In this document: positions 3,197 to 18,819 of the stretch, piece by piece
Layout: each line of letters begins with the position of its first letter
Numbering within the stretch: position 1 is the stretch's first letter
Origin: an uncultured Actinomycetes bacterium
GTDB taxonomy: Bacteria > Actinomycetota > UBA4738 > HRBIN12
Assembly: GCA_963723855.1 (NCBI GenBank)
Contig: CAVRSI010000015.1
Location: 195,553 to 259,552, forward strand
Length of the DNA stretch: 64,000 nucleotides
Direction of reading: 5' to 3'
Translations under genes and position numbers: made by a program
Notes under the pieces: model-generated
Databases searched by the model: none
The model's input: only the letters and a program-made list of their open reading frames with translations
What the model was told of the DNA's origin: nothing

Positions 3197-3900
3197 GGAA
3201 GGAACGCATCCTCGTCGTCGACGACGAGGCCCAGATCCGCAAGGCGCTGAACCGTGCCCTCGTGGCCAGGGGATACGAGGTCGAGACCGCCGTGGACGGC
3301 GAGGAGGCACTGCTCGTCGCCGAACGCTTCGCGCCGGACCTGGTCGTCCTCGACCTGAACCTCCCCGGCATCGACGGGTTCGAGGTCTGCCGGCGACTCC
3401 GGACGTGGTCGGCGACGCCCGTCATCGTGCTCTCGGTGCGGGAGGACGAGGGCGACAAGGTCGAGGCGCTCGACCTCGGGGCGGACGACTACCAGACGAA
3501 GCCGTTCGGCATCGACGAGCTGCTCGCGCGGATCCGCGCCTTGCTGCGTCGCAGCGAAGACCGGAGCGGGCAGGTCGCATCCCGATTCCACTCCGACGGC
3601 CTCGAGATCGACCTGGCGTCCCACCGGGTCGTGCGCGACGGCGAGGGTGTTCGTCTCACGAAGACGGAGTGGGCGCTGCTCGAGGCGTTCGCGACCCATC
3701 CGGGCAAGCTCCTGACCCACGGATGGCTCCTCACGCACGTGTGGGGCGAGGGGTACGCGGACGACGTGGACGTGCTCCGGGTCTTCGTGAGCCAGCTGCG
3801 GAAGAAGATCGAGCGCGAACACACGCGCCCGGCGATCATCGTGACCGAGCCGGGCGTGGGATATCGCTGGGTGCTGCGAGCCTCGCCCGCGGAAGGCTGA
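3186..3900 (+). CDS. kdpE: OmpR-family response regulator KdpE; start region disturbed (probable 1-nt insertion near 3198-3204)
   Basis: Track ORF 3262..3900 has the receiver plus winged-helix domains (DLVVLDLNLPGIDG...KPFGIDELLARIRALLRR...VGYRW). The conserved receiver N-terminus RILVVDDE (3205-3228) is in frame upstream, but no ATG/GTG/TTG precedes it. GTG 3186 or ATG 3180 lie one frame off and would read M(GV)RTEEG-RILVVDDE if one base is removed. Confidence 0.8.
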
Positions 3901-3907
3901 CCGAGAC

Positions 3908-4268
3908 CTACGACGCGAACTCGAACCGGGGGTTCACCATGCGAACCTCGCCGCGCTTGTCCCCCAGCACCCCTTCGACGATGACCTTCGTTCCCAGCGT
4001 CATCCCCTGGATCCCTCGCCGCCCCATGAACACGATGTTCGCGTCGCCGGTCCCGTCGTAGAGCAGCGCCTCGAGCGTCTCCTGCCCCTCGACGGGGAAG
4101 ACCGTGATCCGCCGAACCACGCCGGCGAGCTTCACCGGCTCCCGGAGCGGCGCTTCGGCGATGCGCGTCGTGCCCGGCACCTTCTCCGCCCAGCCGCGGA
4201 TCTCCGGCCGAAAGGCGTGCCTCGTCGCTCTCCTTCAGCCGGTCGAAGAAGCGACGGAAGACTGCCAT
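3908..4268 (-). CDS. OB-fold nucleic-acid-binding domain protein (actinobacterial type); one frame break near 4198-4212
   Basis: The N-terminus MAVFRRFFDRLKESDEARLSA (start of ORF 3489..4268) joins EIRGWAEKVPGTTRIAEAPLREPVKLAGVVRRITVFPVEG...MVNPRFEFAS (ORF 3908..4180) after a 1-nt shift. The family assignment is from memory of mycobacterial homologues. Confidence 0.6.
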
Positions 4269-4277
4269 GCTTCGGTG

Positions 4278-6543
4278 CTACGACGCTGCCATCGACGAGG
4301 CATCGGCCTGCCGGACCACGTCCTCGAGCTCGGACTTGCGCGTCTTCGAGATGTAGATCATCACGCCGAGGATGACGACGCACACGGCGGCGACCGCGAT
4401 CCGGAACGCGACGTCCGTCGGCGTGCGTGACCACGAGCGGTGCGATCAACAGCGCGACCAGGTTCATCACCTTGATCAACGGGTTCAATGCCGGGCCGGC
4501 CGTGTCCTTGAACGGGTCGCCCACCGTGTCGCCGATGACGGCGGCCTTGTGCGCGTCGCTGCCCTTGCCCCCGAAGTGCCCTTCCTCGATGTACTTCTTG
4601 GCGTTGTCCCATGCGCCGCCCGAGTTCGACAGCATCACGGCGAGCAGCTGTCCGGTGAGGATCGCGCCGGCCAGGAACGCCCCGAGCGCTTCGCCCTTCA
4701 ACAGGAAGCCGGCGATGACGGGCGAGAGCACCGCCAGCAGGCCCGGCGTCATCAGCTCACGGAGCGAGGTCTTGGTGCAGATGTCCACGACACGGCCGTA
4801 GTCCGGCTTCTCCGAGTAGTCCATGATCCCCGGGTGATCGCGGAACTGGTTCCGCACCTCGACGACGACCTGCGCCGCCGCCCGGCCGACCGCGCGGATC
4901 GCGAGCGACGAGAACAGGAACGCGACCGACCCGCCGAGCAACAGCCCCACGAGCACGTCCGGGTGGTCGACCCGGATGCCGATGAAGTTGAAGCCGGCGC
5001 CGCGCAGCGCTTCCTCGAACGAACCGAACAGCGACGTCGCCGCGATCACGGCCGTCGCGATCGCGAGCCCCTTCGTGATGGCCTTCGTGGAGTTCCCGAT
5101 GGCGTCCAGGCCGCCCAGGATCTCGGCCGGCCTGCCCTCGAACTCCCCGGACATCTCCGCGATGCCCTGCGCGTTGTCCGAGATCGGCCCGAACGTGTCC
5201 ATGGACACGACGACCCCGACCGTGGTCAGCATCCCCATGCCGGTGAGCGCGATGAAGTACAGGCGCTCGGCGTTCGAGTGACCCAGCAGGAACGCGGCCA
5301 TGATGTCCCCGGCGATCACGATGATCGACCACACGGTCGATTCGAGCCCGACGGAGAATCCCGCCAGGACCGTCGTCGCCGCCCCGGTGACGGTGGACTC
5401 CGCGATCTCCTGCACGGGCCGGTGTTTCGTATCGGTGAAGTGCTGCGTGAGCACCTGGATGATGCTCGCCAGGATCAGCCCGAACGCCACGGCGAAGCCC
5501 GGCTTCCATGAGTGCATGTAGGAGTTCGAGATCACGAACACGGCCGCGGCTGAGATGACCGCGGAGATGAAGAACCCGCGGTTGATGGCCTTCATCCCGT
5601 GCTCCTCTTCACTCCGAGGAGCCACGGCGAGGATCCCGATGATCGAGGTGATCACGCCGACCGCTCGCACGAACAGCGGGAACATCACGCCGGCGATCGC
5701 GCCGATCGACGAGCCGCTGTACGCGGCCGCGCCCAGGATCAAGGAGGCAACCAGCGTGACCTCGTAGGACTCGAACAGGTCCGCCGCCATCCCGGCGCAG
5801 TCGCCCACGTTGTCGCCCACGTTGTCGGCGATCGTCGCGGCGTTGCGCGGATCGTCCTCGGGGATCCCCTGCTCGACCTTGCCGACCAGGTCGGCGCCCA
5901 CGTCGGCCGCCTTCGTGAAGATGCCGCCTCCCACCCGCATGAACATCGCGAGCAGGGCGCCGCCGAACCCGAAGCCCACCAGGACGCTCGTGGCGTCCTG
6001 CTTGTAGATGAGCAGGATCACCGTCGCGCCGAACAGGCCGAGTCCTACCGTGAACATCCCGGCCACGCCGCCGGCGCGGAAGGCGATCCGGACCGCGCGC
6101 CGCAGGCCCGACTCACGCGCGGCGTTCGCCGTCCGGACGTTCGCCCGGACCGCGAGCCACATCCCCACGTAACCGGTCGTGGCGCTGAACACCGCGCCCA
6201 GGATGAACGCGAGCGAGCGCCCGAACTTGATCGAGAACTCGGAGTGCACGGCGTCCTTCGGTGCCGGAAGGATGAAGAACAGGATCACGGTCAGGAGGCC
6301 CAGGAAGACCGCGAGCGTCCGGAACTGGCGCGAGAGGTAGGCCTTCGCCCCCTCCTGGATCGCCTTGGCGATCTCCTTCATCTTCTCGGTGCCCTCGGGA
6401 GCTCCGAGCACCTCGCGCACCAGGTAGTAGGCGAACAGCAGGGCGATCAGCGAGACGCCCATGGTCACCCACAGGAACGTGTTTTCGAACGACCCGAATA
6501 CCGCTCGGATCGGGCCACTCTCCTGGGCCAAGACGCCGTGCAT
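4278..6543 (-). CDS. hppA: Membrane H+-translocating pyrophosphatase, K+-independent type; one frame break near 4408-4424
   Basis: ORF 4132..6582 from [10 protein letters not shown] carries typical H+-PPase blocks ([72 protein letters not shown]). [10 protein letters not shown] has Lys at the position that is Ala in K+-dependent enzymes. After LVVTHAD the track frame turns Arg-rich; the shifted frame gives a final TM helix, [44 protein letters not shown], with its stop at 4278-4280. Confidence 0.9.
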
Positions 6544-6605
6544 CGAACCTCCTCGAGATGTGTGGGAGCGTGCCTCTCTCACCCGACCGGGCCGGGAACG
6601 CGTGA

Positions 6606-6611
6606 AGTATA
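6606..6611 (-). promoter_or_regulatory. Candidate -10 box TATACT upstream of hppA, inside a 10-mer (CCTATACTTC) shared with the riboswitch at 15560
   Basis: The coding-strand sequence TTCATTGCCTATACTTCACG lies about 60 nt upstream of the hppA ATG. An identical CCTATACTTC occurs at 15566-15575. No convincing -35 was found. Confidence 0.3.
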
Positions 6612-6660
6612 GGCAATGAACTGGTCGCCGACCTGCGAGAACGGTGGCTCAGCGACAGGA

Positions 6661-7023
6661 TCAGCGGGCGATCCAGTAGCCGAGCCCGGCGACCAAGAAC
6701 GCCGGCGGGCCGGAGAGCAACAGGTTCCAGCCCACGTAGCGCCATGCCCCGTCCTCGATCAGCTGCACCGTCTCGTACGTGAAGGTCGAGAACGTGGTGA
6801 ATCCGCCGATCACGCCGGTGCCGACGAACGTGAGCCATGTCGCCGAGACGTGCCCGGCGGTCGCGGCGCCGACCAGGAGTCCCAAGGCGAAGCTCCCAAC
6901 CAGATTCACCACCAGCGTGCTCAACGGGAACGGGCTGCGTTGGCGGGGAGCGATCACTCCCTCAACCGAATACCGAAGCAGCGCGCCCAACCCGCCACCG
7001 GCGGCAACGGAAAGCGCGATCAT
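6661..7023 (-). CDS. crcB: Fluoride channel CrcB/FluC (distal copy)
   Basis: 120 aa: MIALSVAAGGGLGALLRYSV...LSTLVVNLVGSFALGLL...TGVIGGFTTFSTFTYET. This is the CrcB signature with four TM segments. It has an ATGA overlap with the upstream DUF190 gene. Confidence 0.9.
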   Translation of the reverse strand: MIALSVAAGGGLGALLRYSVEGVIAPRQRSPFPLSTLVVNLVGSFALGLLVGAATAGHVSATWLTFVGTGVIGGFTTFSTFTYETVQLIEDGAWRYVGWNLLLSGPPAFLVAGLGYWIAR

Positions 7024-7361
7024 CCGGGATGGGTTCCCCGGTAGGAACGGACCTCCACCCGTTCGACGGTCACCAGCCCGTCGCCGACCATCGGATCGAT
7101 CTCCTCGATGAACGCGTCGATACGGTCGACCGTGTCGACGATCTCGATCAACAGCGGGAGGTCCTCTGAGAGACGAAGGATGCGTGCGGTGTGCAACCGC
7201 GAGCTGGCGCCGAATCCCTCGATCCCCCGGATCACGGTCGCTCCGGCAAGCCCCCGCTCGTGTGCGAGGTGGACGATCTCCTCGTACAGGGGTTTGTGCT
7301 GCCACGTATCCGATTCCCCGATGAAGATCCGCAACAGCTTGCATTCGCCTTCGAGCTTCAT
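7020..7361 (-). CDS. DUF190 (PII-like) protein, commonly linked to crcB
   Basis: 113 aa: MKLEGECKLLRIFIGESDTWQHKPLYEEIVHLAHERGLAGATVIRGIEGFGASSRLHTARILRLSEDLPLLIEIVD. It is sandwiched between two crcB genes, with ATGA overlaps on both sides. Confidence 0.8.
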   Translation of the reverse strand: MKLEGECKLLRIFIGESDTWQHKPLYEEIVHLAHERGLAGATVIRGIEGFGASSRLHTARILRLSEDLPLLIEIVDTVDRIDAFIEEIDPMVGDGLVTVERVEVRSYRGTHPG

Positions 7362-7732
7362 CGATCCTCCCTCGGCCTCGCCGGACCGAACCGTCCGGTC
7401 CAGATCCCGTAGACCCCCGCCGCCTGACCGGCGACCAGCGTGGCGAGCCAATACACGAGCGCCGTCCGTACATGGCCCGTATCGATGAGCTTGACCCCTT
7501 CCACGGCCATCGTCGAGAAGGTCGTGTAGGCGCCGAAGAACCCGATCGCGACCAAGGGGCGCATGAATCGGGTCGGCCTGAGCCGCTCGGAAAGCAACAC
7601 GGCGACGACGCCCAGCCCGAACGCCCCGGTGACGTTGACGAAGAACGTCGCCCACGGGAACGCCCCTTGATCGCCGGCGAACGCAAGGCCGATCCGCCAT
7701 CGGGCGAGCGCTCCCACGGCGCCGCCGACCAT
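7358..7732 (-). CDS. crcB: Fluoride channel CrcB/FluC (proximal copy); an alternative GTG start at 7765
   Basis: MVGGAVGALARWRIGLAF...WATFFVNVTGAFGLGVV...IGFFGAYTTFSTMAVEG matches CrcB. Paired crcB genes suggest a heterodimeric channel. Confidence 0.85.
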   Translation of the reverse strand: MVGGAVGALARWRIGLAFAGDQGAFPWATFFVNVTGAFGLGVVAVLLSERLRPTRFMRPLVAIGFFGAYTTFSTMAVEGVKLIDTGHVRTALVYWLATLVAGQAAGVYGIWTGRFGPARPREDR

Positions 7733-7829
7733 GACCGCCGCGGTCCGTGCATGCGAAGGCTTCACGATCGCCGAGCGTCTCAGACGGCCAGGTTCCATCG
7801 AGGCGATGCACCGATCGTGGCGCCTGTTC

Positions 7830-8366
7830 TCAAAGCTCGTCTCGCTTGCGGAAGAAGGCGACCGCAGCACGCCGCCGGCTCTCGTTCGAGACGTACTGAG
7901 GACGTTCGTAGGCGTCGACCGCAAGCGTCCCTTGCCAGTCGATGAACGGCTCGATGGTCGAGTGGTCGATCCCAGCCGCAGCCGCCTCTTCCTCGAGCCG
8001 ACGCAATTCGGTCCGCAAGCGTTGCGCCTCCAACTTCAGGAGCGGCACGATATCTCGGTCGAGCTTGATATACGCCAGGAACGCTTCGCGCTCAGCCTCC
8101 TCGGACACCGCGAACCGCGCACGGTTGGTCACGAGCAGGATGCGCAGCTCCGCAACTGACGCGGCGGATGCGGCGCACCGGATCCTCAGACCTTCGATCC
8201 TGGAACGACCGGTGTCACCGCTTCCGCTGAACGCGGGATCATCCTCAGCCACGATGCGGACCCCTCTGTCGCACGCTTCCGCGATCAACGCCTCCTGGGA
8301 AAGCTCCGGGCGTACCGCCTTCGCGCGGTCAAGATCGGCCTTGAAGATCCTCATGGGCTCGCTCAC
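7830..8366 (-). CDS. Hypothetical protein (178 aa from GTG 8366, or 174 aa from ATG 8354), second gene behind riboswitch A
   Basis: Clean ORF: (VSEP)MRIFKADLDRAKAVRPELSQEALIAEACDRGVRIVAEDD...LKLEAQRLRTELRRLEEEAAAAG...FFRKRDEL. GTG 8364-8366 overlaps the stop of the upstream gene (GTGA). I recognise no family. Confidence 0.6.
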   Translation of the reverse strand: MSEPMRIFKADLDRAKAVRPELSQEALIAEACDRGVRIVAEDDPAFSGSGDTGRSRIEGLRIRCAASAASVAELRILLVTNRARFAVSEEAEREAFLAYIKLDRDIVPLLKLEAQRLRTELRRLEEEAAAAGIDHSTIEPFIDWQGTLAVDAYERPQYVSNESRRRAAVAFFRKRDEL

Positions 8367-8830
8367 GTACTGCCCTCGCCGATCGCAGCGCGAAGGGCGA
8401 CGATCCGGGCTCGGTACGCGTCGATATCCCGTTGCAGACGGGGGAGCATCCAATCGACGGTCTGCTCGATCTCTCTTCGATACATCCGCGTGGACAATTC
8501 GCGCTTGCGGGTTTCCTTCGAACCATCGAACCAGGCGTAGCGGGTCACTGGGATCAGGGACTCCACAGATCTCACCACGTTCTCCAGGCGGTCGAGACGC
8601 TCTTCGTCCGTCGGGAGGCTGCTTAGCTCAGCCTCCACGACGATGTCGAAAAGGCCGGCTTCCAGGATGAACCGTCGCTCGGACGTGTCGATCGGCATGG
8701 CGGGCGACTCGGGCTCGGCGACGTCGATGAACTCCTCGGCGACGTATTCGTAGTCCAGGTCGCGCACCATCGGACGTAACGATCCGAGGTCGGGAGTGGG
8801 TCGCTTGAGCGAGTGATCCGATCCGGTCAT
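8363..8830 (-). CDS. Hypothetical acidic protein (155 aa), first gene behind riboswitch A
   Basis: ORF: MTGSDHSLKRPTPDLGSLRPMVRDLDYEYVAEEFIDVAEPES...RMYRREIEQTVDWMLPRLQRDIDAYRARIVALRAAIGEGST. The ATG lies only 2 nt after the GGAGG of the riboswitch platform, so the start could instead be the internal Met at 8770. I recognise no family. Confidence 0.6.
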   Translation of the reverse strand: MTGSDHSLKRPTPDLGSLRPMVRDLDYEYVAEEFIDVAEPESPAMPIDTSERRFILEAGLFDIVVEAELSSLPTDEERLDRLENVVRSVESLIPVTRYAWFDGSKETRKRELSTRMYRREIEQTVDWMLPRLQRDIDAYRARIVALRAAIGEGST

Positions 8831-8898
8831 GGCCTCCTACCTCGATCCGGTAGGAGCCATCAGCTCAGCGTGAGCGGGTTCGGCGAGCTCCATCGCCC
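8831..8898 (-). promoter_or_regulatory. Fluoride riboswitch (crcB motif), copy A: aptamer 8849-8898 plus an SD-sequestering helix
   Basis: Minus-strand RNA: GGGCGAUGGAGCUCGCCGAACCCGCUCACGCUGAGCUGAUGGCUCCUACC-GGAUCGA-GGUAGGAGGCC-AUG. Elements are P1 GGCG/CGCC, loop GAUGGAGCU, an AAC linker, P3 GCUCA/UGAGC, CUGAU, and a 3' GCUCC complementary to the loop GGAGC (pseudoknot), then CCUAC. CUCCUACC pairs with GGUAGGAG and masks the SD. A TAAGAT -10-like box is at 8910-8915. Confidence 0.8.
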
Positions 8899-8968
8899 TT
8901 CGACATCACATCTTAAGCCCTCAACCGGTTCGGCGCGTCCGTTCCGAGCTCGGTGTCAGCGGCATGAT

Positions 8969-10491
8969 CTACTGCCCGAGGTCAGTGGCCGTCCGCCCTT
9001 CGGTGTCCCGGGCGGTATCGAAGATGCGCCAGTAGGCGTCCTCGCCGAAGCTGGTTGGCAATGGTTCACCTTCGATGAGTCGGAACGTGCGCCGACCGTC
9101 GGGCTGCCGTTCGGCGCGAAGGAAGTAGGCAGTGTCCAGCTGCTGGATGTAGAAGCCGTGCGCGAGGTCGAACAGGTGCGTGACGAAGAAGACCTTGACG
9201 CCGGCATCTATCGATGCGCGGACGACTTGCCGGGCGATCTCGGAGCCCTCTCGCTCGTTCGTTGCCGAGAACGACTCGTTGCACAGCAAGAGGGAGTTCG
9301 GCGTGATCATGTCGGCGAGGTCGCTCATCCTCCCGAGCTCTTCGTCCAGCTTGCCGCTCTGCATCGTGACGTCTTCTCCTCGTTTGAAGTGCGTGAAGAC
9401 ACCGGTACAGACGTTGGCGCTGAAGGACTCCGCACCGACGAACATCCCGCTCTGCATCATCAGTTGCGCCGATCCGACGCTGCGCAGGAACGTCGACTTG
9501 CCGCCCTGGTTGGCGCCGGTGATCATGACGAGCAGCTTGCTCGCCGCTGTGACGTCATTGCCGACGACATCGTTCGCCACGCTCAGCGCCAGACAAACGT
9601 CGTACATCCGTCGAGCGGTGAGCGACGGGCGATCCTCAACGATGGGCATCGGGAAGGACGTCGGCTCTCCCTTCGCCGTCAGGCGTTCGTGCACATTCAC
9701 GCAGCCGATGTAGAAGCCGGTTTCCGCCCGCAACAGATCGAAGAAGCTGCGGATGTAATCGGCGGACTGAGCGAGCACGTTGGCAACCTGGTTGATCCTT
9801 TCGCTCGCAGGTCGCCCAGCGCCCTCGCCCCGCTCTCGTCGCGATCCGCGATCTGGAAGCTGAGGCCGGACCTGCCCCTGCGAGTGATCCGCTGCCTCCA
9901 GCTCAGCGTGGGGAGCGTCCGCAGCACGTAGTGGACGCCCTTGTTGCCCCTCCCGAGCTCGGCACTCATCAAGACGCCGCGCTCGAACCGCAACTCCTCG
10001 AGACGATCCTCGATGGTTCGGAAGTACGCGTCGTCCAGCTCCTCCGCGAGCATCGCGAAGAAACGCACGAAGCCATCGGACCGGAACCCTCCGGCGTGAT
10101 CGTCCGCGAGCCTGCGAAGCTGCCTGAGCGAACCCACGAACACCTCCATGGACTGGAGCGATCGCGTGAGGACGGCTTGCGGGGACATGAACGCGCCCCA
10201 GATCTTCTTCTCTTCCATGATCGCGCCGGCGGCGACCTGATAGATCTGTCTGACGACGGACGGTCGCTCCAGGCAGTCGGTCAGCACGTGCTGCCGGTAG
10301 ATGATCGCCTCCGGGCTCGTCAGGCTCGTCAGAACGGCCTTCCTCGCCACGTCGAACAGGAACGGGTCACCGGCCGCCATCGCGTTGAAGAGGATGTTCA
10401 GCTCGAGGTCTTGGGTGAGCGATCCTTCGTTCGACGGGAGTTCGCGCTGGAGGTCGAAGTCATCGTCCTCGTACATCAGGAAAGCCTTCAT
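8969..10491 (-). CDS. MutS-related ABC-type ATPase B (MutS domains III/V only); one frame break near 9796-9800
   Basis: The N-terminal half is ORF 9697..10491 (MKAFLMYEDDDFDLQRELPSNEGSLTQDLELNILFNAMAAGDPFLF...). The C-terminal half is ORF 8969..9778 (Walker A ITGANQGGKSTFLRSVG, LLLCNESFSATNEREG, Walker B/signature region). The two join as ...LRAKG-INQVANVLAQSADYIRSFF. There is no mismatch-binding domain I and no Smr/nuclease domain. Confidence 0.8.
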
Positions 10492-12020
10492 CGCACGTAT
10501 CCGCCTCCGCAGCGTCTCGTACGTAGGCCGTACTTCTCGGCGATGGCAGCGGCATAGGCAAGTCCGTCTGCGGGCTTCCTGGTGATCTTAACGTTCGCGT
10601 CGCGGGGTCATCGGGCACGACCGCGCTCACCATGCTGACCGTGACCTCGCTGAGGGAGGACAGCTCGTCCATGAAGGTCACGCACACGCACAACGAGTGC
10701 AACGCGATCAACCGATCCGTCACTTCCGTGCCGAGGAACACGGCGTCACGAAGCGAGGTCGAGTTGAAGCTCTCGTTCATGATGACGACGCTGTCGCTGG
10801 TCGCCAGGCGGAGGATTCGTGGAAGCTACCAGTTCATCCTCGAGCTTTCCGCGGAGGGTCGCGAGGTTCTCTTCCCGTTCGAAATGCGCGAAGACGTGAT
10901 CGGGCAGGGAGAGGTGCGCTGCCTTCGCAGGAACGAGACAACCGAGGTTGGCGAGATGATGCAGCTGGCCGAACATCCGTGCGAACGTCGTCTTCCCGCC
11001 TTGGTTCGGACCGGTAACGACGATGACGCGTTCCGGCTCCGTGAGATCGAACGAGTTGCACACGACCTCCGAACCCTGCGGGACGAGCTTGTTGGCGAGC
11101 GCGAGATCGAACGCATCGTGTGCGAACACGTGCTTCGCGCGAACGGACACGTGCGGGTAGCAGAACGGCAATCCGGCCGATCGGAACCGCTTGGCGTGCT
11201 CGAGATATGCCAGGTAGAACTGCACCTCCCGATCGAAGGTGCCGATGATCTGATCGAGGTAGTCACGGTGACGCACGCGATACTCGTCCAGCGCTCGCGA
11301 GACGTCGGGATACAGCTGTGCCACCAACTCGAACACGCGAGCTTCAACGGGATCCATGTCCAGCGAAGCAGTGAGTTTGACCCGGTGATCCCCCACGGCG
11401 CCGTGCTTGAACTTCGCGAACGTCTCCACGACCTCTGCGCTGAAGTCAGGCTCTCCCTCGTACCTGCTGACCGTGACCCGGTTCCCAGCGATGTGAACGC
11501 AGTACTTCACCGAAGCCAAGGCGTCCTTCAGCTCACGCGTTGCCGATATGAGTGACGTGAACGTCACGGACGCGGTGTAGTCCAGGATGTAGTCGCGGAA
11601 CGCCCGCAGGCCACGTGATGTCAATCCGAGAGATGCGAACCCTTCAGCCAGCGATCGAACCGCGTCGCAGTAGACCTCCACCGCCTCAACGAACCAACGC
11701 TTCTTCTGCGATGTGTAGTAGAGCTTCTCCACCTGAGCGAGATGCGCGCGCATCTCCTGCATGCGTCGCGAGAAGGCCTGGATGGCTTCCATGACCGCGC
11801 CATCCTCGAGGTCACGGAATACCTCATGCCGGTAGTACACGGCTTCGACGTCGCGCAACGGCGTGTAGAAGAAGGGCTTCAGTTGGTACTCGTCGCGACC
11901 GGCCGTTATCGACTCCACCACCTGATCGAGATTCAGGTCGCGGAAGAACCCGGGCTCTTCGAGCTCGTCGATCACGACGCTGCTCGGAGGCTGGTCGAAG
12001 AGGACGCTGTGGAACCGCAC
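10488..12020 (-). CDS. MutS-related ABC-type ATPase A (MutS domains III/V only); at least two frame breaks (10586-10594, 10818-10832); start revised to GTG 12020 (or 12032)
   Basis: ORF 10746..12164 contains (V)RFHSVLFDQPP...PGFFRDLNLDQVVESI and Walker A VTGPNQGGKTTFARMFG. It continues in ORF 10460..10780 (VIMNESFNSTSLRDA...VCVTFMDEL) and then in a third frame (KITRKPADGLAYAAAIAEKYGL...). The stop TGA 10488-10490 overlaps the ATG of ATPase B. The first 44-48 codons of the track ORF are occupied by riboswitch C and its leader. Confidence 0.75.
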
Positions 12021-12153
12021 GTCCCGACGCACCGGAGAGCCGTTCGGGTTCCGGAGCCTGCCGAGCTCCTGGGTCCCTCCGCCGGTGAAGGATCCTCGCT
12101 CGCTCGTGATACGCCTCCTTCCGCTGACGTCCGAAGCGCCCCGAGGGGCAGCC

Positions 12154-12202
12154 GTAGAAGCCATCAGCGTCGGAAGACGCGGTTCAGGCGAGCTTCATCG
12201 CC
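12154..12202 (-). promoter_or_regulatory. Fluoride riboswitch (crcB motif), copy C, aptamer; leader extends to about 12021
   Basis: Minus-strand RNA: GGCGAUGAAGCUCGCCUGAACCGCGUCUUCCGACGCUGAUGGCUUCUAC. Elements are P1 GGCG/CGCC, P3 GCGUC/GACGC, and loop GAAGC paired with 3' GCUUC. That pseudoknot carries a compensated double change relative to GGAGC/GCUCC in copies A and B. A TAACAT -10-like box lies at 12209-12214, 6 nt upstream. An SD-like GGAAGGAGG near 12114-12122 has no canonical start after it. The first in-frame GUGs are at 12032 and 12020. Confidence 0.75.
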
Positions 12203-12247
12203 ACCCCGATGTTAGCCCAGGAGGCGACGGACGGATGGCCTCGACCG

Positions 12248-12874
12248 CTATCCGTCTGACGTCGATCCCGCGAGCAGGCCGATGATGCGTCGCGCCGCGA
12301 GCGAGCGTTGTTCCGGGTCGTTGGCCGAGACTCGGGCGCGCGCGCTGAGCGCGAGGAGGGAGCGACGCTGCGTCGCGATGAGGAACCGCAGAGTGGACCG
12401 ACCGGGGCGAGTCCGACCGCCATGCTGAGATGCGGCCGGCAGATGCCGGTCGACACCTGATAGGCGGCGAGCACGTCGGGCTCGGCGAGCGCGTCGAAGA
12501 GCATCCCGAGCACCGACCGCCCTCGACGTTCTACCGCCGCGCATACGGGACACGCAGGTGGCCCCTCGGCCACACCCGCTCCGAAGTCCTCCGAGGCGGC
12601 CTGAGCAGATCCGCGAAAGGAGCCGCGCGCCCGCCGCCCCCAGATCCCCTCCTCGTCGGTCGAACACGCTCGCCCAGTGGGGCGCACAGAGTCCGCGGGA
12701 GTCGACGGTCTTGTCAATCGTCTCCTCTTCCCGGATGTTCGTGGTCGCGAGCCACGACAGGACCGCCCGTTCGGTCTCCCCCGCCAGCCGGCAGACGGGA
12801 CATCCGTCGCTACGAAGTGCGAGACCGAGCTCGGCCTCGAGGAGAATCTCGCGGAGAGGTTTCCGCTTCGTCAC
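12248..12874 (-). CDS. Hypothetical protein with two CPVC motifs (putative zinc-binding); two frame breaks (12398-12408, 12599-12614)
   Basis: Reconstructed from ORFs 12248..13243 and 12184..12717: VTKRKPLREILLEAELGLALRSDGCPVCRLAGETERAVLSWLATTNIREEETIDKTVDSRGLCAPHW...ARLLSRI / AQAASEDFGAGVAEGPPACPVCAAVERRGRSVLGMLFDALAEPDVLAAYQVSTGICRPHLSMAVGLAPV / RSTLRFLIATQRRSLLALSARARVSANDPEQRSLAARRIIGLLAGSTSDG. Its GTG start overlaps the phosphatase stop (GTGA). Confidence 0.55.
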   Translation of the reverse strand: MTKRKPLREILLEAELGLALRSDGCPVCRLAGETERAVLSWLATTNIREEETIDKTVDSRGLCAPHWASVFDRRGGDLGAAGARLLSRICSGRLGGLRSGCGRGATCVSRMRGGRTSRAVGARDALRRARRARRARRLSGVDRHLPAASQHGGRTRPGRSTLRFLIATQRRSLLALSARARVSANDPEQRSLAARRIIGLLAGSTSDG

Positions 12875-13504
12875 ATGCGCAGGGAGTCTTGTGCTCGACC
12901 TGCCTGTCGGAACAGGTCTTCGAGGACGGTCGGCACCTGCAGCCCTTCGTCGGTCGCCCGCAGCTCGATCACGGAGCCCGGCGACACGTCCGGGTCCCAA
13001 AACGCCGTTCCTTCGAGCCCCTTCAGACGCACGAGCACCAGCCGGATGAGGAGCTCGTGCGTGACCACGGCCACCGCTCGTTCGGGGTGCCGACCGCCTA
13101 TCGACTCCAGGGCCCTGAATGCACGTCGCTCGGCGGCCGCCATGCTCTCTCCGGAGGGGAAGGTCGCCGCCGCCGGGAACCGGAAGTAGAAGTCGAACGC
13201 TCTCGGCTCCGACTCCCTGATCGAGCGGCGTGCGAGCCACCACGAGCCCACGTCGACATCGGTCAGATCACTTCGATCGGCGTGGAACCACACCGACGGA
13301 ACGCCCGATGACGTCGGCGGTCTCCCGGGCGCGACGCCGGGGACTGGTGTAGATCGCGGAGACGTCCTCGAGAGCCAGACGCTCCGCCGCGCGCCGCGCA
13401 TCGTCCACGCCTTGCGCGGTCAGCGGGTCGTCCGTCTGTCCTTGCAGCCGACCTTCACTACTGAGAGCGGTCCGACCGGCTCGCACCACGAACAACGATG
13501 TCAT
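12871..13504 (-). CDS. Histidine-phosphatase (phosphoglycerate-mutase-like) fold protein with RAG in place of the catalytic RHG; one frame break near 13289-13306
   Basis: N-terminus from ORF 13268..13633: MTSLFVVRAGRTALSSEGRLQGQTDDPLTAQGVDDARRAAERLA...IYTSPRRRARETADVIG. C-terminus from ORF 12871..13401: VWFHADRSDLTDVDVGSWW...FRFPAAATFPSGESM...VAVVTHELLIRLVL. The codons read CGA GCC GGT, that is R-A-G. Confidence 0.7.
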
Positions 13505-13701
13505 CGGGAGCTCCCCCCATGTATGGCTTCCGCCGACGGCACATCCGGTGCGGTACGGATCGACATCGCCACGTGATCCCAGTCGATGCGGAGCAGCTCG
13601 ACCGGTCTGACGCGCGGGACGAACCGATTCCAATCCACGTCGACATCTTCGATCCGTCGCTCGCGCAGCGCAGGCGTCAGGTGCGGATAGGCGGAGGTCA
13701 T
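13501..13701 (-). CDS. Possible separate 66-aa ORF between the dynamin-like and phosphatase genes
   Basis: MTSAYPHLTPALRERRIEDVDVDWNRFVPRVRPVELLRIDWDHVAMSIRTAPDVPSAEAIHGGSSR. GGAGG lies 4 nt upstream of the ATG at 13699-13701. As sequenced it is in frame with the dynamin ORF. Removing one C from the C5 run at about 13712-13716 would end the dynamin gene with an ATGA overlap onto this ATG. Confidence 0.35.
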   Translation of the reverse strand: MTSAYPHLTPALRERRIEDVDVDWNRFVPRVRPVELLRIDWDHVAMSIRTAPDVPSAEAIHGGSSR

Positions 13702-15483
13702 GGCGCCTCCATCACCACCATGACGGGGGCCGGTCGCGGCCGTTTGGAACGCCTCACGGAGCTGGTCGAGCCGGCGTCGATCGACCCGCGCATCTTCCTT
13801 GGCTCGCAGGGCGTCTTCGGCCGACCGCTGCCGATCGCGTTCGGAGCGTTCGAATCCCCGCACCGAGGCTCTCGATGGTCGCTTCCAGGCTCCGGTCCAA
13901 TGCCGATCCAAGGTCACGGCGACTCCGGTCGAGCCGCTGCACGAAGTCCCAGTGAAGGCGTCCCATGTGCTTGTCGACGAGCGAAGGAGTCGCTCCCTCA
14001 AGGTCGCGCAGGAACAGGCGCCGCGCCGTCTCTCGCGGCAGGAACCGGCGAACGTCCGGCAGGATCGACTCGATGATCGATGGAGGTTCGAAGAAGCTGA
14101 AACTGAACGGGGTCCGGAAGACAGCTCGACGAGATGGCCCTCGGAAACGAGCTGGATCCCGAGGATCTCGCCGCACAGCCGGACGGTCTCCCGCTCGGTA
14201 CCGTCCGCCTCCTCGACGAAACGGGCCGTTGCGTCCCGGAACGCGGCGGAGAGCGTCTGCTCCTCGAGTCCGCGCCAGTGGCCGATATCGGTGCGGAGCG
14301 CCTCCCTCAAGAACACGAACCCCTCGTCGTCCCGCGCGATGCGCCGGACGTCCTCAAGCGAGGCAACGTGTTCCTCGACGGCAGACGTCAGGCGGGTCTC
14401 CTCCTCGGAACGAAGCTGTTCCAGATCCTGCTCGAGACGGGACACGAGCGCCTCGGCCTCCTGATCGAGAAGAGCGTGCATGTCGCGTTGTCTCGATCGA
14501 GCCTGGGCGAATACCTCCTGCATGCGCCGACGAGCCTCTTCCAGCTCCTGGACGGGGAGATCGAGCGCCCGCTCCTGCACCTCCAGCGCGTTGCGCTCGT
14601 CGTCCACCAGCCGCAGCGCACGCCCGGCCACGGAGGCCAGGATGGCCCGCCCTTTCTCGTCCAGCAGGAACGTCCGGAAATCACGTTCGAACGCGGGGAG
14701 CCCCGAAGCCTCCAACTCGCGGTCGTCTCCGGCGAGCTTCGCCCGGAGCGCCCGGCGGGCGCTCAAGGGATAGACAACGACGTCCTGCCCGACGGCTTCT
14801 TCGATAACCCGATGTGTGAACGCGATGGACTCGTCACGGTCGAGCCCCGACAGGTAGTCGATCTTGTTCAGGACGAAGAAGAGACGCGCCGTCTCCCCGC
14901 GAACTCCTCGAGGAACGCACGCTCCGTCTCGGAGAATTGGCGGGTCCGCAGAGGTGAGGAAGACGGCGGCGTCGGATTCGGAGAGGAAGGCGCGCGCCGC
15001 CTCGGTGTTGCGCTGGTAAACGCTGCCGACGCCGGGCGTATCGACTAGGAACACCCCGTCACGCAGATCTTCCGACGGGTACGACACCACGGCCCTCGCG
15101 ACCCCCAGCGCATTGTCCGGGTTGCCTCGCTCGGTCACGTACGTAGCGAGATCCGTCACGTCGACGTCCTCTTCGCGGCCGTCGAGATAGCCGATCCGAG
15201 CTCGGATCTCCCTCCCCCACGTCACCGCCGTGACGATCGAGGTGAGTGGCACGACGGCGGAAGGAAGCACGTCTGCGCCGAGGAGTGCATCCACGAACGT
15301 GGTCTTGCCCCGTTTGAACTCGCCGAAGACCACGACGTTGAATCGGTTCTCGACGAGCTTCTTGTCGAGGGCCCGTGCAGCGTCTGTGACGGCCCGGCTC
15401 TCGCGTCGGTCGGCGAACTCGGCGAGATCGTCGAGCGCCACGAGAAGCCTGTCCCGCTCCTCCGCGTAGGTTCGTTGACCCAT
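13699..15483 (-). CDS. Bacterial dynamin-like GTPase (BDLP family); four frame breaks inferred (13855-13862, 14125-14140, and a compensating pair at 14893-14900 / 14932-14938); 3' end uncertain
   Basis: ORF 13501..15483 has G1 VVVFGEFKRGKTTFVDALLG, G3 FLVDTPGVGS and G4 FFVLNKIDYL, followed by long coiled-coil-like stalk sequence. The middle of the C-terminal part is in ORF 13754..14176 (FRTPFSFSFFEPPSIIESILPDVRRFLPRETARRLFLRDLEGATPSLVDKHMGRLHWDFVQRLDRS...). It is the first gene after riboswitch B. Confidence 0.8.
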
Positions 15484-15560
15484 GGAAAAGCTCCTACCTC
15501 TGCATCCAGGTAGGAGCTATCAGCTCGCCGGGGCGAGCGGTTAGGCGAGCTCCATCGCCT
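15484..15560 (-). promoter_or_regulatory. Fluoride riboswitch (crcB motif), copy B: aptamer 15509-15560 plus an SD-sequestering, terminator-like helix at 15484-15520
   Basis: Minus-strand RNA: AGGCGAUGGAGCUCGCCUAACCGCUCGCCCCGGCGAGCUGAUAGCUCCUACC-UGGAUGCAG-AGGUAGGAGC-UUUUCC-AUG. Elements are P1 GGCG/CGCC, loop GAUGGAGCU, an AAC linker, P3 GCUCGC/GCGAGC, CUGAU, and a 3' AGCUCC complementary to the loop GGAGCU, then CCUAC. GCUCCUACCU pairs perfectly (10 bp) with AGGUAGGAGC and masks the SD AGGAG. A TATACT -10-like box lies at 15568-15573, 7 nt upstream. Confidence 0.85.
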
Positions 15561-15649
15561 CACCCGAAGTATAGGGGAGCGGAGGAGCGAACCTTCCCAA
15601 GGATCGCCAACGACGATGGTCGACTCTCCCCGCTCCGTAAACTCGCAGG

Positions 15650-16922
15650 ATGAGCTATCAGATCGATTCGATACGTGCGCTGGAGAGTCCTGGATTCCCG
15701 AGGCAGACCGACGCTGCACGTGACCCTGGGACTCGTCGGAGGCGCGATCGGGACGGCCGGCGTGCCATCCGGCGCGTCGACCGGGACCCGCGAGGCCGTC
15801 GAGAGGCGGGACGGCGACCAGGAGCGGTTCGAAGGCGCGGGCGTCCAGCGGGCCGTCATGACCGTCGAAGGGGAGATCGCGGACGCCGTGACCGGCCGCG
15901 ACTGGGAGTCTCTGGCGGAACTCGATCATGCCCTGATCGGGTTGGACGCAACGCCTAACAAGGAACGGCTCGGCGCGAACGCCATCGTCGGTGTCTCCAT
16001 GGCGGCGGCTCGCGCGATGGCGGCGGCCGACGAGCGTCCGCTCTACGAGTGGCTGGCTCCGTCGGGATACGCGCCACGTCTTCCCGTCCCGCACTTCAAC
16101 GTCATCAACGGCGGGGCGCACGCCGGCAACCAGCTCGCGTTCCAGGAGTTCATGATCGCGCCGATCGGCGCGCCGAGTTTCCGCGAAGCGCTGCGGGCCG
16201 GCGCTGAGACCTACGCCATGCTCCGGCACGGACTGAAGGAGGCCGGCTACGCGACCGGTCTGGGCGATGAAGGCGGCTTCGCTCCGGAGATCTCGGAGCC
16301 GGAGGAGGCGTTGGACCTCCTCGTCGAGGCCATCCGGGCCGCCGGATACGAACCCGGCCGGGACTCGGTCGCGATCGCGCTCGATCCAGCGGCGTCGGGC
16401 TTCCGTGCGGAAGACGGCATGTACGAGGTGACCGAGGCACGGCTGACCTCGGCGGAGATGACCGAGCGCTACGCGCAGATGGTGGACCGCTATCCGGTGT
16501 GGTCGATCGAGGACGGGCTCGCGGAAGACGATCCGGAAGGGTGGACCGAGTTGACCCAACGCCTCGGCGACCGGATACAGATCATCGGGGACGATAATTT
16601 CGTCACGAACCCGGGCCTCATACGGGAGGCCATCGCGCATGGCATCGGCAACGCTGCGCTCATCAAGCTGAACCAGATCGGGACCGTCACGGAAACCCTC
16701 GAAGCGATCGAGGTCAGCCGATCGGGCGGGTACGCGCAGATGATCTCGCACCGGTCCGGAGAGACATGCGATCCATTCATCGCCGACCTGGCGGTCGCCG
16801 TGGGCTGTGGCCAGATCAAGTCCGGGGCCCCGGCTCGAGGCGAGCGACTCGCGAAGTACAACCGCCTTCTCGAGATCGAGCTGGGGCTGGACCGTCCGAC
16901 GTTCGGCCTCGTACCCAAGTGA
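15650..16922 (+). CDS. eno: Enolase, divergent copy (SHRSGETCD instead of SHRSGETED); one extra base near 15683-15687
   Basis: ORF 15675..16922 has VLDSRGRPTL, VPSGASTGTREA, GDEGGFAP, LIKLNQIGTVTET, SHRSGETCDPFIADLAV and RGERLAKYNRLLEIE. The canonical N-terminus MSYQIDSIRALE is in ORF 15650..15958, one frame off. It joins as ...IRALE-VLDSRG. Confidence 0.9.
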
Positions 16923-17413
16923 GCTTCGAAGGGTCCGCGCTTTGGCGCGTCCGGCAGAAGATCGGGCACGACCTCCTGCTGTGGCCGGGCGCGACCGTGC
17001 TCCTGGAAGACGCGGACGGACGGATCCTCCTGGGTCTGCGGCGCGACAACGACGAGTGGACGATGCCCGGAGGCGGTGCCGAGGAAGGCGGGAGCTTCGC
17101 CGCGACGGCGCTCGACGAGTTGCGGGAAGAGGTGGGGCTCGAGGCCGACGCAGCGGACCTGGTCGCGTTCGCATGCGTCTCGGAGTCCGCCGACCACCTG
17201 ATCCCGTACCCGAACGGAGACCTCACCCACTACTTCGGCATCTGGTTCGTGCTCCGCCGGTGGCGGGGCGAGCCGGAGGCCGATGGCGACGAGCTCGTCG
17301 AGCTCGGGTGGTTCTCCCGCGACGCGCTCCCCGAGCCGTTGATGCACAGCTCGGCCGTGGCGCTCCGGCACTACACGGCGTACCTGGAGTCAGGCGTCTT
17401 CCAGATCGGCTGA
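16919..17413 (+). CDS. NUDIX hydrolase
   Basis: The Nudix box is GGGAEEGGSFAATALDELREEVGL. Its GTG start overlaps the eno stop (GTGA at 16919-16922). Confidence 0.75.
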   Translation: MSFEGSALWRVRQKIGHDLLLWPGATVLLEDADGRILLGLRRDNDEWTMPGGGAEEGGSFAATALDELREEVGLEADAADLVAFACVSESADHLIPYPNGDLTHYFGIWFVLRRWRGEPEADGDELVELGWFSRDALPEPLMHSSAVALRHYTAYLESGVFQIG

Positions 17414-18793
17414 GGGTGGTGACTCGGCGGCCTCGACGGGCCTGGTCCCCGATGTGCGGCGCAACCATACGAAACCGATAGGTCCCGCCAGGATCGCCGT
17501 CAGCAGGATCCCGATCTTCGCTTGCTCGACCGCTCCGGGCTGCCCGACGAAGGCCACATCAGCCACGAACAACGAAACCGTGAACGCGACGCCAGCGGCC
17601 GCGGCCACGGCGAATATGCTTCCGAGTCGTGCCCCGTCGGGTAGCCGCCCGATCCCGAGCCGAACCGTGAGCCACACCCCTCCCCCGATCCCCACGATCT
17701 TTCCCACCACGTGGCCGCTCACCACCCCAAGCGTCACCGGACTCCTGAGCGCATCGGCGACCGCATCGACGGATAGTGGTATGCCCGCGTTCGCCAACGC
17801 GAACAGCGGAAGCACCACGATCGTCGCCATAGGGAGGAGCAGGTGCTCCATCCTTGCGAGCGGCGACACAGCCTCTTTCGAGAGCCAAGCGAGCTGCAAC
17901 CACCAACGCGCATCGGCGTCGGGCGGGTCGGGTTCGTCAACGGTCTCATCGGCGACACGGATCGCTTCCTCGCGCACGTGGCGGGGTCGCTGGAGCGGGA
18001 ATGCCGGCGTGAGCAGCCCCACCACCACGCCCGCGAGGGCAGGCTCCACGCCCGAGGCATCGAGCGACAACCACATCGCCACTCCCAACGCCGCGAAGAT
18101 CGCCATCGAACGAACGCCGAGACGTCGGATCAGCACCATCGCGCCGGCCACGCCGATCGCCAGCAGGAGTGCTGGGAACCGGATGAGGGACGGATAGAAC
18201 ACCGCGATCACGACGACGGTGAGGATGTCGTCCACGATCGCCAGCGTGAGCACGAAGGCCCGAAGGCCGACCGGAGCGTTCCGGATGGCGAGCGCGAGGA
18301 TCCCCAGCGTGAACGCGATATCGGTCGGCATCGCGATCCCCCACCCCCGCGAACCAGCCCCGCCTCTGTTCACGAGCAGATAGATCAGAGCGGGCACGAC
18401 CATCCCTGCGACCGCAGCGATGACGGGGAGCGCTGCCGCGCGCACATCCCGCAGTTCACCGATCAATACCTCGCGCTTGATCTCCAGCCCGACGACGAGG
18501 AAGAAGAACGACATCAATCCGTCGTTCACCCACGCTCGCAGGCTGTCGTTGACTGTCCAGCTGCCCACGCCGAGAGAGATCGGGGTGCGCCATAGCCGCA
18601 CGTAGCTTTCGGCGAGCGGCGAGTTCGCCCATACCAATGCAACGACCGCCGCGGCGACGAGCAGGATCCCGCCTGACGTCGAGGACTCGAGGAACTCCTG
18701 AAGTGGGCGCACGACGCGGCGCGGCACAGCACGGTTCGACTGCGCCCACGAGGGCCGGATCGCGGGGCCGGGTCTGGGGGTGTCGTTCGCCAT
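17390..18793 (-). CDS. nhaA: Na+/H+ antiporter NhaA (copy 1)
   Basis: 467 aa with ...LVWANSPLAESYVRLW...NDGLMSFFFLVVGLEIKREVLIGEL...VPALIYLLVN...AIVDDI..., typical NhaA. Confidence 0.85.
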   Translation of the reverse strand: MANDTPRPGPAIRPSWAQSNRAVPRRVVRPLQEFLESSTSGGILLVAAAVVALVWANSPLAESYVRLWRTPISLGVGSWTVNDSLRAWVNDGLMSFFFLVVGLEIKREVLIGELRDVRAAALPVIAAVAGMVVPALIYLLVNRGGAGSRGWGIAMPTDIAFTLGILALAIRNAPVGLRAFVLTLAIVDDILTVVVIAVFYPSLIRFPALLLAIGVAGAMVLIRRLGVRSMAIFAALGVAMWLSLDASGVEPALAGVVVGLLTPAFPLQRPRHVREEAIRVADETVDEPDPPDADARWWLQLAWLSKEAVSPLARMEHLLLPMATIVVLPLFALANAGIPLSVDAVADALRSPVTLGVVSGHVVGKIVGIGGGVWLTVRLGIGRLPDGARLGSIFAVAAAAGVAFTVSLFVADVAFVGQPGAVEQAKIGILLTAILAGPIGFVWLRRTSGTRPVEAAESPPSADLEDA

Positions 18794-18819
18794 CGTGGAT
18801 CTAGGCGCCCCGACGGTGA

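Follow-up and report, generated by a model that had tools for sequence, protein, structure and literature searches.

A predicted translational fluoride riboswitch ahead of two unannotated genes, apparently split from a dynamin-like GTPase cassette and followed by a crcB exporter block

In RNAs of the fluoride riboswitch class (Rfam family RF01734), it is established that fluoride binding captures the 3' tail of the aptamer in a pseudoknot. In the mycobacterial iniBAC system, one operon encodes a dynamin-like protein (DLP) together with small accessory proteins, and chemical stress induces its expression. Both are points of reference for a stretch of 64,000 nucleotides (nt), here called the window, from an uncultured Actinomycetes bacterium (assembly GCA_963723855.1, contig CAVRSI010000015.1), in which a fluoride riboswitch on the minus strand stands directly ahead of two genes, unk1 and unk2, with a crcB-DUF190-crcB fluoride exporter block behind them. 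An association of mutS with this riboswitch class has been known since Weinberg 2010 (PMC2864571), and enolase, pyrophosphatase and Na+/H+ antiporters are among the genes linked to it (PMC11139923). A literature search, whose scope lay outside the primary supplementary gene list of the class, found no dynamin-like GTPase, DUF6062 or unk1/unk2 as cargo of a fluoride riboswitch, and a search for DUF6062 found no paper. What might explain why a fluoride riboswitch precedes two genes without annotation, with the exporter genes only at the distal end? The best explanation, to which we assign a probability of about 0.7 as a whole, is that the leader is a self-contained ON switch acting on translation of unk1 and unk2, that these two genes come from a riboswitch-headed DLP cassette that has been split in this lineage, and that the crcB block is an add-on. 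The leader and the pair of genes contain the following features.

8844-8906, minus strand: fluoride riboswitch aptamer, RF01734, matched over the full-length model by Rfam cmscan
8897-8894 with 8885-8882, minus strand: P1 helix, GGCG/CGCC
8875-8863, minus strand: P3 helix, GCUC/GAGC
8891-8887 with 8857-8853, minus strand: pseudoknot, GGAGC of the P1 loop with the complementary GCUCC of the 3' tail
8829-8860, minus strand: predicted sequestor hairpin, with 5' arm 8860-8849, loop 8848-8842, and 3' arm 8841-8835 plus 8833-8829
8843-8839, minus strand: candidate Shine-Dalgarno (SD) motif GAGGU, 8 nt from the AUG at 8830
8837-8833, minus strand: candidate SD motif GGAGG, 2 nt from the AUG at 8830
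8915-8910, minus strand: -10-like hexamer TAAGAT, 12 nt upstream of P1, putative promoter of the unit
8363-8830, minus strand: unk1, 155 amino acids (aa), predicted to be all-helical and soluble; first cistron and predicted direct target of the switch
7830-8366, minus strand: unk2, 178 aa, GTG start, helical with a coiled-coil-like stretch

The initial annotation of this DNA, made from the letters alone, had called a fluoride riboswitch here, and the covariance model bears this out: the match at 8844-8906 reaches 52.6 bits where the gathering score is 34, with an E value of 1e-11 and all model positions (1-64 of 64) covered. The RNA that it quoted corresponds exactly to the minus strand at 8898-8828. 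A scan of the whole 64-kb window with Rfam models finds three RF01734 copies within 7 kb, all on the minus strand, the other two being:

15504-15568, minus strand: RF01734 copy, 49.0 bits
12148-12211, minus strand: RF01734 copy, 45.2 bits

The 8844-8906 copy is nearly identical to the one at 15504-15568 except in P3, as had been noted before and as our comparison agrees. Among 44 related loci that we mapped by tblastn, and to which we refer by L numbers, four (L001-L004) carry orthologous aptamers directly upstream of unk1, scoring 45-59 bits, and the changes in P3 sequence among these orthologues preserve the pairing of the helix. The 3' boundary of the aptamer lies 13 nt ahead of the unk1 AUG on the same strand. 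The RNA at 8844-8906 thus appears from its sequence to be an ordinary member of RF01734, with nothing new in the RNA mechanism itself, and the region 8828-8915 on the minus strand appears to form a self-contained fluoride-responsive leader.

How would such a leader act on the gene behind it? The 3' tail of the aptamer can also pair with GGUAGGAG-GCCAU immediately downstream, and the region 8825-8862 has a minimum free energy (MFE) of -19.8 kcal/mol, with z = -4.2 and with 0 of 200 shuffled sequences folding as well. The SD-masking helix CUCCUACC/GGUAGGAG that had been proposed from the letters is the predicted minimum-energy fold, prolonged to UGGC/GCCA, and the hairpin is also the MFE fold within the full leader. 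Its 5' arm includes the pseudoknot strand GCUCC, and since this strand is needed by both the pseudoknot and the sequestor, the two structures are mutually exclusive; its 3' arm covers most of both SD-like motifs together with the A and U of the AUG. Reading the sequence after the hairpin reveals no U-tract, GACCGGAUCGG following instead, and a terminator scan found no terminator-like site on the minus strand at the leader. Without U-tract or terminator, and with a helix that masks the SD, the leader points to the translational, SD-sequestering type with ON logic; it is not a riboswitch of the transcription-terminating type.

The two SD-like motifs deserve closer attention because one of them, GGAGG, sits only 2 nt before the ATG at 8830, an oddity that the initial annotation observed correctly and from which it suggested either that a base is missing or that the real start is the Met codon at 8770 (Met21 of unk1). 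In favor of such an artefact, long-read assemblies of metagenome-assembled genomes (MAGs) do carry indels: the window differs from L044 by 52 gaps in 8.2 kb, and its MutS-like and His_Phos_1 genes are frameshifted. A missing base is nevertheless excluded, because the platform CTCCTACCGGATCGAGGTAGGAGGCCATG is invariant in six independent assemblies (the window, L001, L002, L003, L004 and L044), whose flanks differ by up to ~20%; the stretch GGAGGCCATG is likewise the same in all six. As for the Met codon at 8770, unk1 codons 2-13 diverge freely, with 0 stops in five aligned loci and no indels in four, the single insertion in L001 being offset by a nearby deletion that restores the frame. Residues 14-26 (DLGS[LI]RPMVRDLD) are conserved and line up with the N-termini of remote homologues, in which the ATG overlaps the stop of the upstream gene, which for residues 14-20 is the DLP gene. 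Conserved residues ahead of Met21 argue that unk1 starts at ATG 8830, and a wrong start or a lost base is very improbable.

The other candidate for ribosome binding is GAGGU, which is complementary to ACCUC of the 16S rRNA 3' end and lies 8 nt from the AUG. The same design, in which the helix arm runs right up to the start codon and GAGGU or GGAGGU lies 6-9 nt before it, recurs in four further leaders (L005, L006, L030 and L032), for example as GAGGUGGGCGCC-AUG and GAGGUAGGCGCC-AUG in L005/L006 and as GGAGGUAGGAGC-GUG in L030. The 3' arm has to complement the invariant, anti-SD-like tail CUCCUACC, and so it will resemble an SD wherever it is placed.

Riboswitches with a different tail occur in L003 at 5167-6469 (minus strand), in L012 at 4018, in L037 at 3095 and in L032 at 2533 (minus strand); the tail is GGCCUCUACC in three of them and GGCUUCUACC in L032. 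Genes of the Na_H_Exchanger type follow those in L003 and L012, and a matching sequestor, CUGGUGGAGGC or CUGGUAGAGGC, follows those in L003, L012 and L037. Different tails with matching sequestors indicate that the sequestor helix co-varies with the aptamer tail between platform types.

Whether the leader has a promoter of its own bears on how self-contained it is. A strict two-hexamer sigma-70 scan of 6000-16500 gave no match, and the promoter criterion used here is a -10-only TANNNT pattern, calibrated on the window's own background: 62 occurrences in the 128,000 positions of both strands of this window of 68% G+C, or 4.8e-4 per position, which puts the chance of one in a given 11-position span at P = 0.005. 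The hexamer TAAGAT is kept in L001 and L002 and reads TATGAT in L003 and L004. Of the non-redundant leaders with a typical P1 start that the window and related loci contain, 24 of 24 carry a TANNNT 6-13 nt upstream of P1, as against 0 of 14 places elsewhere where the P1-like pattern matches by chance. This points to a promoter belonging to the leader itself, from which transcription would begin a few nucleotides ahead of P1. Alternatively, the leader could lack one and be an internal riboswitch in a transcript that begins at the 12148-12211 copy and runs through the two MutS-like genes. The distance between the nearer MutS-like stop (8969) and the aptamer is indeed only 62 nt, with no terminator-like site between them, yet the spacing between P1 and the conserved -10-like hexamer matches that of all the other leaders examined. 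We regard an exclusively internal riboswitch as improbable, and read-through and an own promoter are not mutually exclusive.

Taken together, a promoter with the -10 hexamer TAAGAT would start the transcript a few nucleotides upstream of the aptamer. In the absence of fluoride, the tail AUGGCUCCUACC would pair with GGUAGGA/GCCAU and mask the two SD-like motifs along with the A and U of the AUG, leaving unk1 untranslated. In its presence the tail would be captured in the pseudoknot (GGAGC with GCUCC), the hairpin would be blocked, GAGGU would be exposed and unk1 would be translated. The translation of unk2 would then follow by coupling through a GTGA overlap, and the primary cargo of this translational ON switch would be the unk1-unk2 pair.

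What are these two genes? The initial annotation recognized no family for the 155-aa and 178-aa products, and searches of Pfam and NCBIfam agree in giving no match for either, as does PADLOC. No common family emerged among 32 unk1 members or 17 unk2 members. Profiles compared with PDB sequences gave a best E value of 1.7 for unk1 and no match for unk2, and the two are unrelated to each other by hhalign (probability 0.95%). AlphaFold2 models, made from shallow early alignments, are helical and of low confidence, with pLDDT of 54 for unk1 and 57 for unk2. Both families have homologues reaching down to ~27-35% identity: unk1 comprises 10 clusters of close homologues, with 54 representatives at 50% identity among 1.84 billion proteins, and unk2 at least 17 clusters by profile search. 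The unk1 dN/dS between the window and L003 is 0.25. The GTG start of unk2 overlaps the unk1 stop as GTGA, and it is supported by the homologues, in which Val or Ile takes the place of an internal Met of the window protein; an invariant ...N-E-S-R-R... motif lies near the unk2 C-terminus. By these comparisons, unk1 and unk2 are real genes under purifying selection, and their overlap marks them as probably translationally coupled. A 312-aa protein (P0081) that seemed to be an unk1-unk2 fusion was rejected as the product of a frameshift that lets one gene read into the next in an assembly rich in indels. A scan of genome contigs with one of the alignments matched only two MAGs, both of an uncultured Actinomycetes bacterium; the MAGs come from Microflora Danica soils.

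The gene neighborhood provides the clue that the products themselves do not. In every one of the 44 loci where the sequence reaches far enough, unk1 and unk2 are adjacent, and except in the window lineage, L030 and L031 they directly follow a DLP gene, often with 4-nt overlaps of stop and start, as in L009 and L005. Downstream of the pair are His_Phos_1 and/or DUF6062 genes and often an MFS transporter. The resulting order, found in ~20 related loci of uncultured soil actinobacteria, is fluoride riboswitch, DLP, unk1, unk2, and His_Phos_1 and/or DUF6062, with the riboswitch ahead of the DLP gene in every locus whose sequence covers the 5' side (L005, L006, L009, L013, L014, L017-L020, L022, L025, L032 and L041). 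The DLP is ~590 aa long, and an intact orthologue matches Nostoc BDLP (2J68, E value 9e-25) and IniA (6J72, E value 4e-13), as well as the Campylobacter DLP1/2 structure 5OWV. The copy in the window shows the G1 (GEFKRGKTT), G3 (DTPG) and G4 (NKID) motifs. Judged by these matches and motifs, the cassette protein is a bona fide bacterial dynamin-like protein. In the window it belongs to a sister unit:

13501-15568, minus strand: riboswitch 15504-15568 followed by the DLP gene, the apparent ancestral upstream neighbor of unk1-unk2

The relationship of unk1-unk2 to the DLP gene behind riboswitch 15504-15568, absent from the initial annotation, seems clear from the synteny: the pair belongs with that gene. 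The window lineage, consisting of the window, L001-L004 and L044, has the unit split in three, each part with its own riboswitch, the first ahead of DLP, small open reading frames (ORFs), His_Phos_1 and DUF6062, the second ahead of two MutS-like genes and the third ahead of unk1-unk2. Compared with the canonical cassette, the DLP gene of the window is 4.7 kb upstream of the pair behind its own riboswitch. The ancestral operon would thus have been riboswitch, DLP, unk1, unk2, and His_Phos_1 and/or DUF6062, split here by the two MutS-like genes, and the pair would have kept its fluoride control through its own riboswitch copy. A comparable outcome is seen in L030: the DLP gene has been turned around, and a second, separate riboswitch (29.8 bits, E value 6e-5, below the gathering score) stands ahead of unk1; the two riboswitches at 3489-3650 are divergent and 40 nt apart, each with TATACT upstream, and the one on the unk1 side has a degenerate P1. 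That fluoride control of the pair was kept in two independent rearrangements, in the window lineage and in L030, argues for selection on that control.

Tentatively, and with the odds somewhat against us, DLP, unk1, unk2, His_Phos_1 and DUF6062 could be viewed as a dedicated and hitherto undescribed fluoride-stress module of an uncultured actinobacterial lineage, in which unk1 and unk2 would be obligate partners of a membrane-remodeling GTPase required when fluoride accumulates. That unk1 and unk2 serve as accessory subunits of the DLP in membrane stress is put forward as a hypothesis. If the module were real, a membrane or envelope arm would join a fluoride response that so far consists of export, pH homeostasis and overproduction of fluoride-inhibited enzymes.

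Behind unk2, after a spacer, lies the exporter block:

7733-7829, minus strand: unk2-crcB1 spacer of 97 nt when counted to the ATG at 7732, 64 nt when counted to a GTG at 7765
7358-7732, minus strand: crcB1, Fluc subunit, 124 aa; Pfam CRCB PF02537 85.6 bits, TIGR00494 82.5 bits
7020-7361, minus strand: DUF190 protein, 113 aa; PF02641 144 bits; ATGA overlap with crcB1
6661-7023, minus strand: crcB2, Fluc subunit, 120 aa; PF02537 88.0 bits, TIGR00494 84.4 bits; ATGA overlap with DUF190

Both crcB genes exceed the cut-offs of PF02537 (32.9 bits) and TIGR00494 (80.45 bits). They are ~36% identical to each other and are the sole crcB pair in the window by tblastn and blastp. The start of crcB1 at 7732 is equivalent to the start called in L002, and L044 has GTG instead of ATG at this codon, which is consistent with its being the start. 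The observation in the initial annotation that the gap of 64-97 nt before crcB has no riboswitch of its own holds: the spacer has no Rfam match even at E <= 10, and cmscan at the same threshold over 6500-9000 of the window and 10950-11800 of L002 found no degenerate fourth riboswitch before crcB. Nor does the spacer contain a terminator-like site, a significant fold (z = +0.36) or a TANNNT.

The spacer owes its present form to a deletion. Homology with L001 and L002, otherwise colinear, ends at 7829 and restarts at 7784 in blastn comparisons, and the 44 nt at 7785-7828 are a scar replacing ~670 nt that hold the His_Phos_1 gene of L001/L002. On the right, the break cuts into a -10-like TATTCT, which those two loci carry ~50 nt upstream of crcB. 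Because L044, an independent assembly from another sample that is 98% identical, shares the same junction, the deletion is real. It removed the His_Phos_1 gene and disrupted the -10-like hexamer, bringing crcB1-DUF190-crcB2 to 97 nt behind unk2. In L003 the order is riboswitch, unk1, unk2, His_Phos_1 and MFS, and in L004 it is riboswitch, unk1, unk2, His_Phos_1 and an H+-pyrophosphatase (H+-PPase) gene, with no crcB in either place. The presence of riboswitch-unk1-unk2 without crcB in L003 and L004 implies that the riboswitch was not selected for control of crcB, and the crcB-DUF190-crcB block appears to be a late, lineage-specific addition behind the pair.

How far, then, would fluoride control extend to the exporter genes of this strain, and how secure is the account as a whole? 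Several observations weigh against it. A translational switch alone does not regulate distal cistrons. In L001 and L002 crcB is preceded by the His_Phos_1 gene and TATTCT, and by the gene orders of L001-L004 the link between riboswitch and crcB is not conserved. The sole TANNNT between 8830 and 6661 on the minus strand, TATCGT at 8052 inside unk2, is a possible internal promoter. In L031, unk1-unk2 have neither a DLP gene nor a riboswitch within 3.7 kb upstream, and Foldseek comparison of the low-confidence models of unk1 and unk2 with the PDB gave no match at E <= 0.001 and none better than E = 0.5.

One could go further than we do and regard all five genes as one strictly fluoride-controlled operon, with the riboswitch as main regulator of the exporter through Rho-dependent termination whenever unk1 is untranslated. 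The five genes share one strand, the spacer is free of riboswitch, terminator and -10-like hexamer, the TATTCT found before crcB in L001/L002 was lost in the deletion, the block holds the only crcB pair of the window, and fluoride exporters are the commonest cargo of the riboswitch class (PMC11139923). We find this doubtful, since the platform is translational and has no intrinsic terminator, so that polarity has to be assumed, since L003 and L004 carry riboswitch-unk1-unk2 without crcB, since a cell without basal exporter expression would be vulnerable, and since riboswitches govern only ~15% of Fluc genes (PMC11139923). The opposite possibility is that the riboswitch controls unk1-unk2 only and that the crcB block is constitutive from an unrecognized promoter in the spacer or in unk2. 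The TATTCT of L001/L002 and the TATCGT at 8052 speak for it, as do the rarity of riboswitches among Fluc genes at large and the 97-nt gap in a unit whose other junctions are 4-nt overlaps. Yet TATTCT is cut by the deletion in the window, whose spacer is devoid of TANNNT, and there is no terminator between unk2 and crcB. Moreover, TATCGT at 8052 coincides with the D-I-V codons of a conserved LDRDIVP peptide and is absent where the unk2 motif reads DVVP, and one occurrence is what chance predicts. A constitutive block is therefore unlikely in our estimation. In the reading we prefer, with unk1-unk2 as the primary cargo, co-transcription of crcB from the riboswitch promoter, with the exporter as the tail of the unit as the initial annotation had proposed, is plausibly the simplest arrangement for this strain; as the switch would act on unk1 translation, any effect of fluoride on crcB would be only indirect, possibly through polarity of the Rho type or through mRNA stability as long as unk1 goes without translation.

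Further downstream on the minus strand, the next -10-like hexamer is a TATACT at 6611 that stands before the H+-PPase gene. This hexamer (6606-6611, minus strand) and ~100 nt upstream of the gene (6538-6639) are 85-90% conserved in L003 and L004 despite differing upstream genes, which suggests a promoter and leader belonging to the H+-PPase gene itself.

More widely, 4132-19998 is a dense fluoride island with three RF01734 copies, the crcB pair, two MutS-domain-V proteins, His_Phos_1, DUF6062-like ORFs and the DLP, together with:

4132-6582, minus strand: H+-PPase
15675-16922, plus strand: enolase
17390-18793 and ~18865-19998: two NhaA-type antiporters

The neighborhood fits a described fluoride 'super-regulon' of enolase, two NhaA-type antiporters, H+-PPase, MutS-like ATPases and crcB. 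The riboswitch copy at 12148-12211 has a compensatory pseudoknot, GAAGC with GCUUC, with the P1 loop GAUGAAGCU and the tail GGCUUCUAC compared with GGAG/CUCC in the other two copies. Its predicted competing helix pairs CGCUGAUG with CGUCAGCG and not with an SD, and the ATG at 12164, a candidate start of the MutS-like gene, falls inside the aptamer. Several genes of the island are interrupted: one MutS-like gene is split into 10746-12164 and 10460-10780, the other into 9697-10491 and 8969-9778 (minus strand), the window His_Phos_1 (region 12961-13501, minus strand) appears as two tblastn pieces in different frames, and the DLP ORF at 13501-15483 (minus strand) overshoots its usual end by ~75 codons. 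Given the 52 gaps relative to L044 and the heavy fragmentation of L001, the frameshifted genes are probably products of long-read assembly indels and not pseudogenes. The ORFs at 12248-13243 (minus strand) have repeated CPVC...C(A/R)PH motifs of zinc-binding-like appearance and correspond to the DUF6062 gene of the cassette. In L003, a riboswitch of 44.9 bits (12756-13311, minus strand) precedes a 147-aa ORF that has no Pfam match and is not crcB by tblastn; this ORF may be a further unannotated fluoride-regulated gene.

The cargo of a riboswitch is a reliable guide to physiology related to its ligand, and here it flags two unannotated families and also points to their conserved neighbor, the DLP, as a component of the response to fluoride. 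Confirmation would provide a bacterial dynamin, one of a group whose functions are mostly unclear, with a defined inducer and a physiological context open to testing, and would extend the fluoride regulon. The locus is also a clear example of operon remodeling, in which inserted genes split a cassette, its fragments each held on to a riboswitch copy and a deletion then brought the exporter genes directly behind the pair.

Compared with other crcB-DUF190-crcB clusters encoding heterodimeric Fluc channels, the block of the window shares two divergent crcB paralogues flanking DUF190 and overlaps of stop and start; unlike them, in this strain it lacks its own riboswitch or recognizable promoter and stands 97 nt behind unk2 through the deletion. 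With the iniBAC operon (IniA/IniC) and Nostoc BDLP the locus shares a bona fide BDLP gene that would ancestrally have been immediately upstream of unk1-unk2. The predicted inducer differs, being fluoride through a riboswitch, and no similarity of unk1 or unk2 to IniB, IniC or LeoB/C, or to any entry of the PDB or of Pfam, could be detected. The crcB riboswitch of Bacillus cereus is of the same aptamer class and has the same fluoride-ON ligand logic, but as described in PMC11077080 its intrinsic terminator overlaps the aptamer, whereas the predicted helix here hides the SD and the AUG and there is no terminator. The closest counterpart is the translational type of RF01734 itself, with which this leader shares the full model match, the conserved nucleotides of P1, P3 and the pseudoknot, the tail alternating with an anti-SD helix and the predicted ON logic. 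What sets the locus apart from that type is its gene content: the first cistrons belong to two unannotated families, the exporter is distal, and three copies of the riboswitch stand ahead of three adjacent sub-operons.

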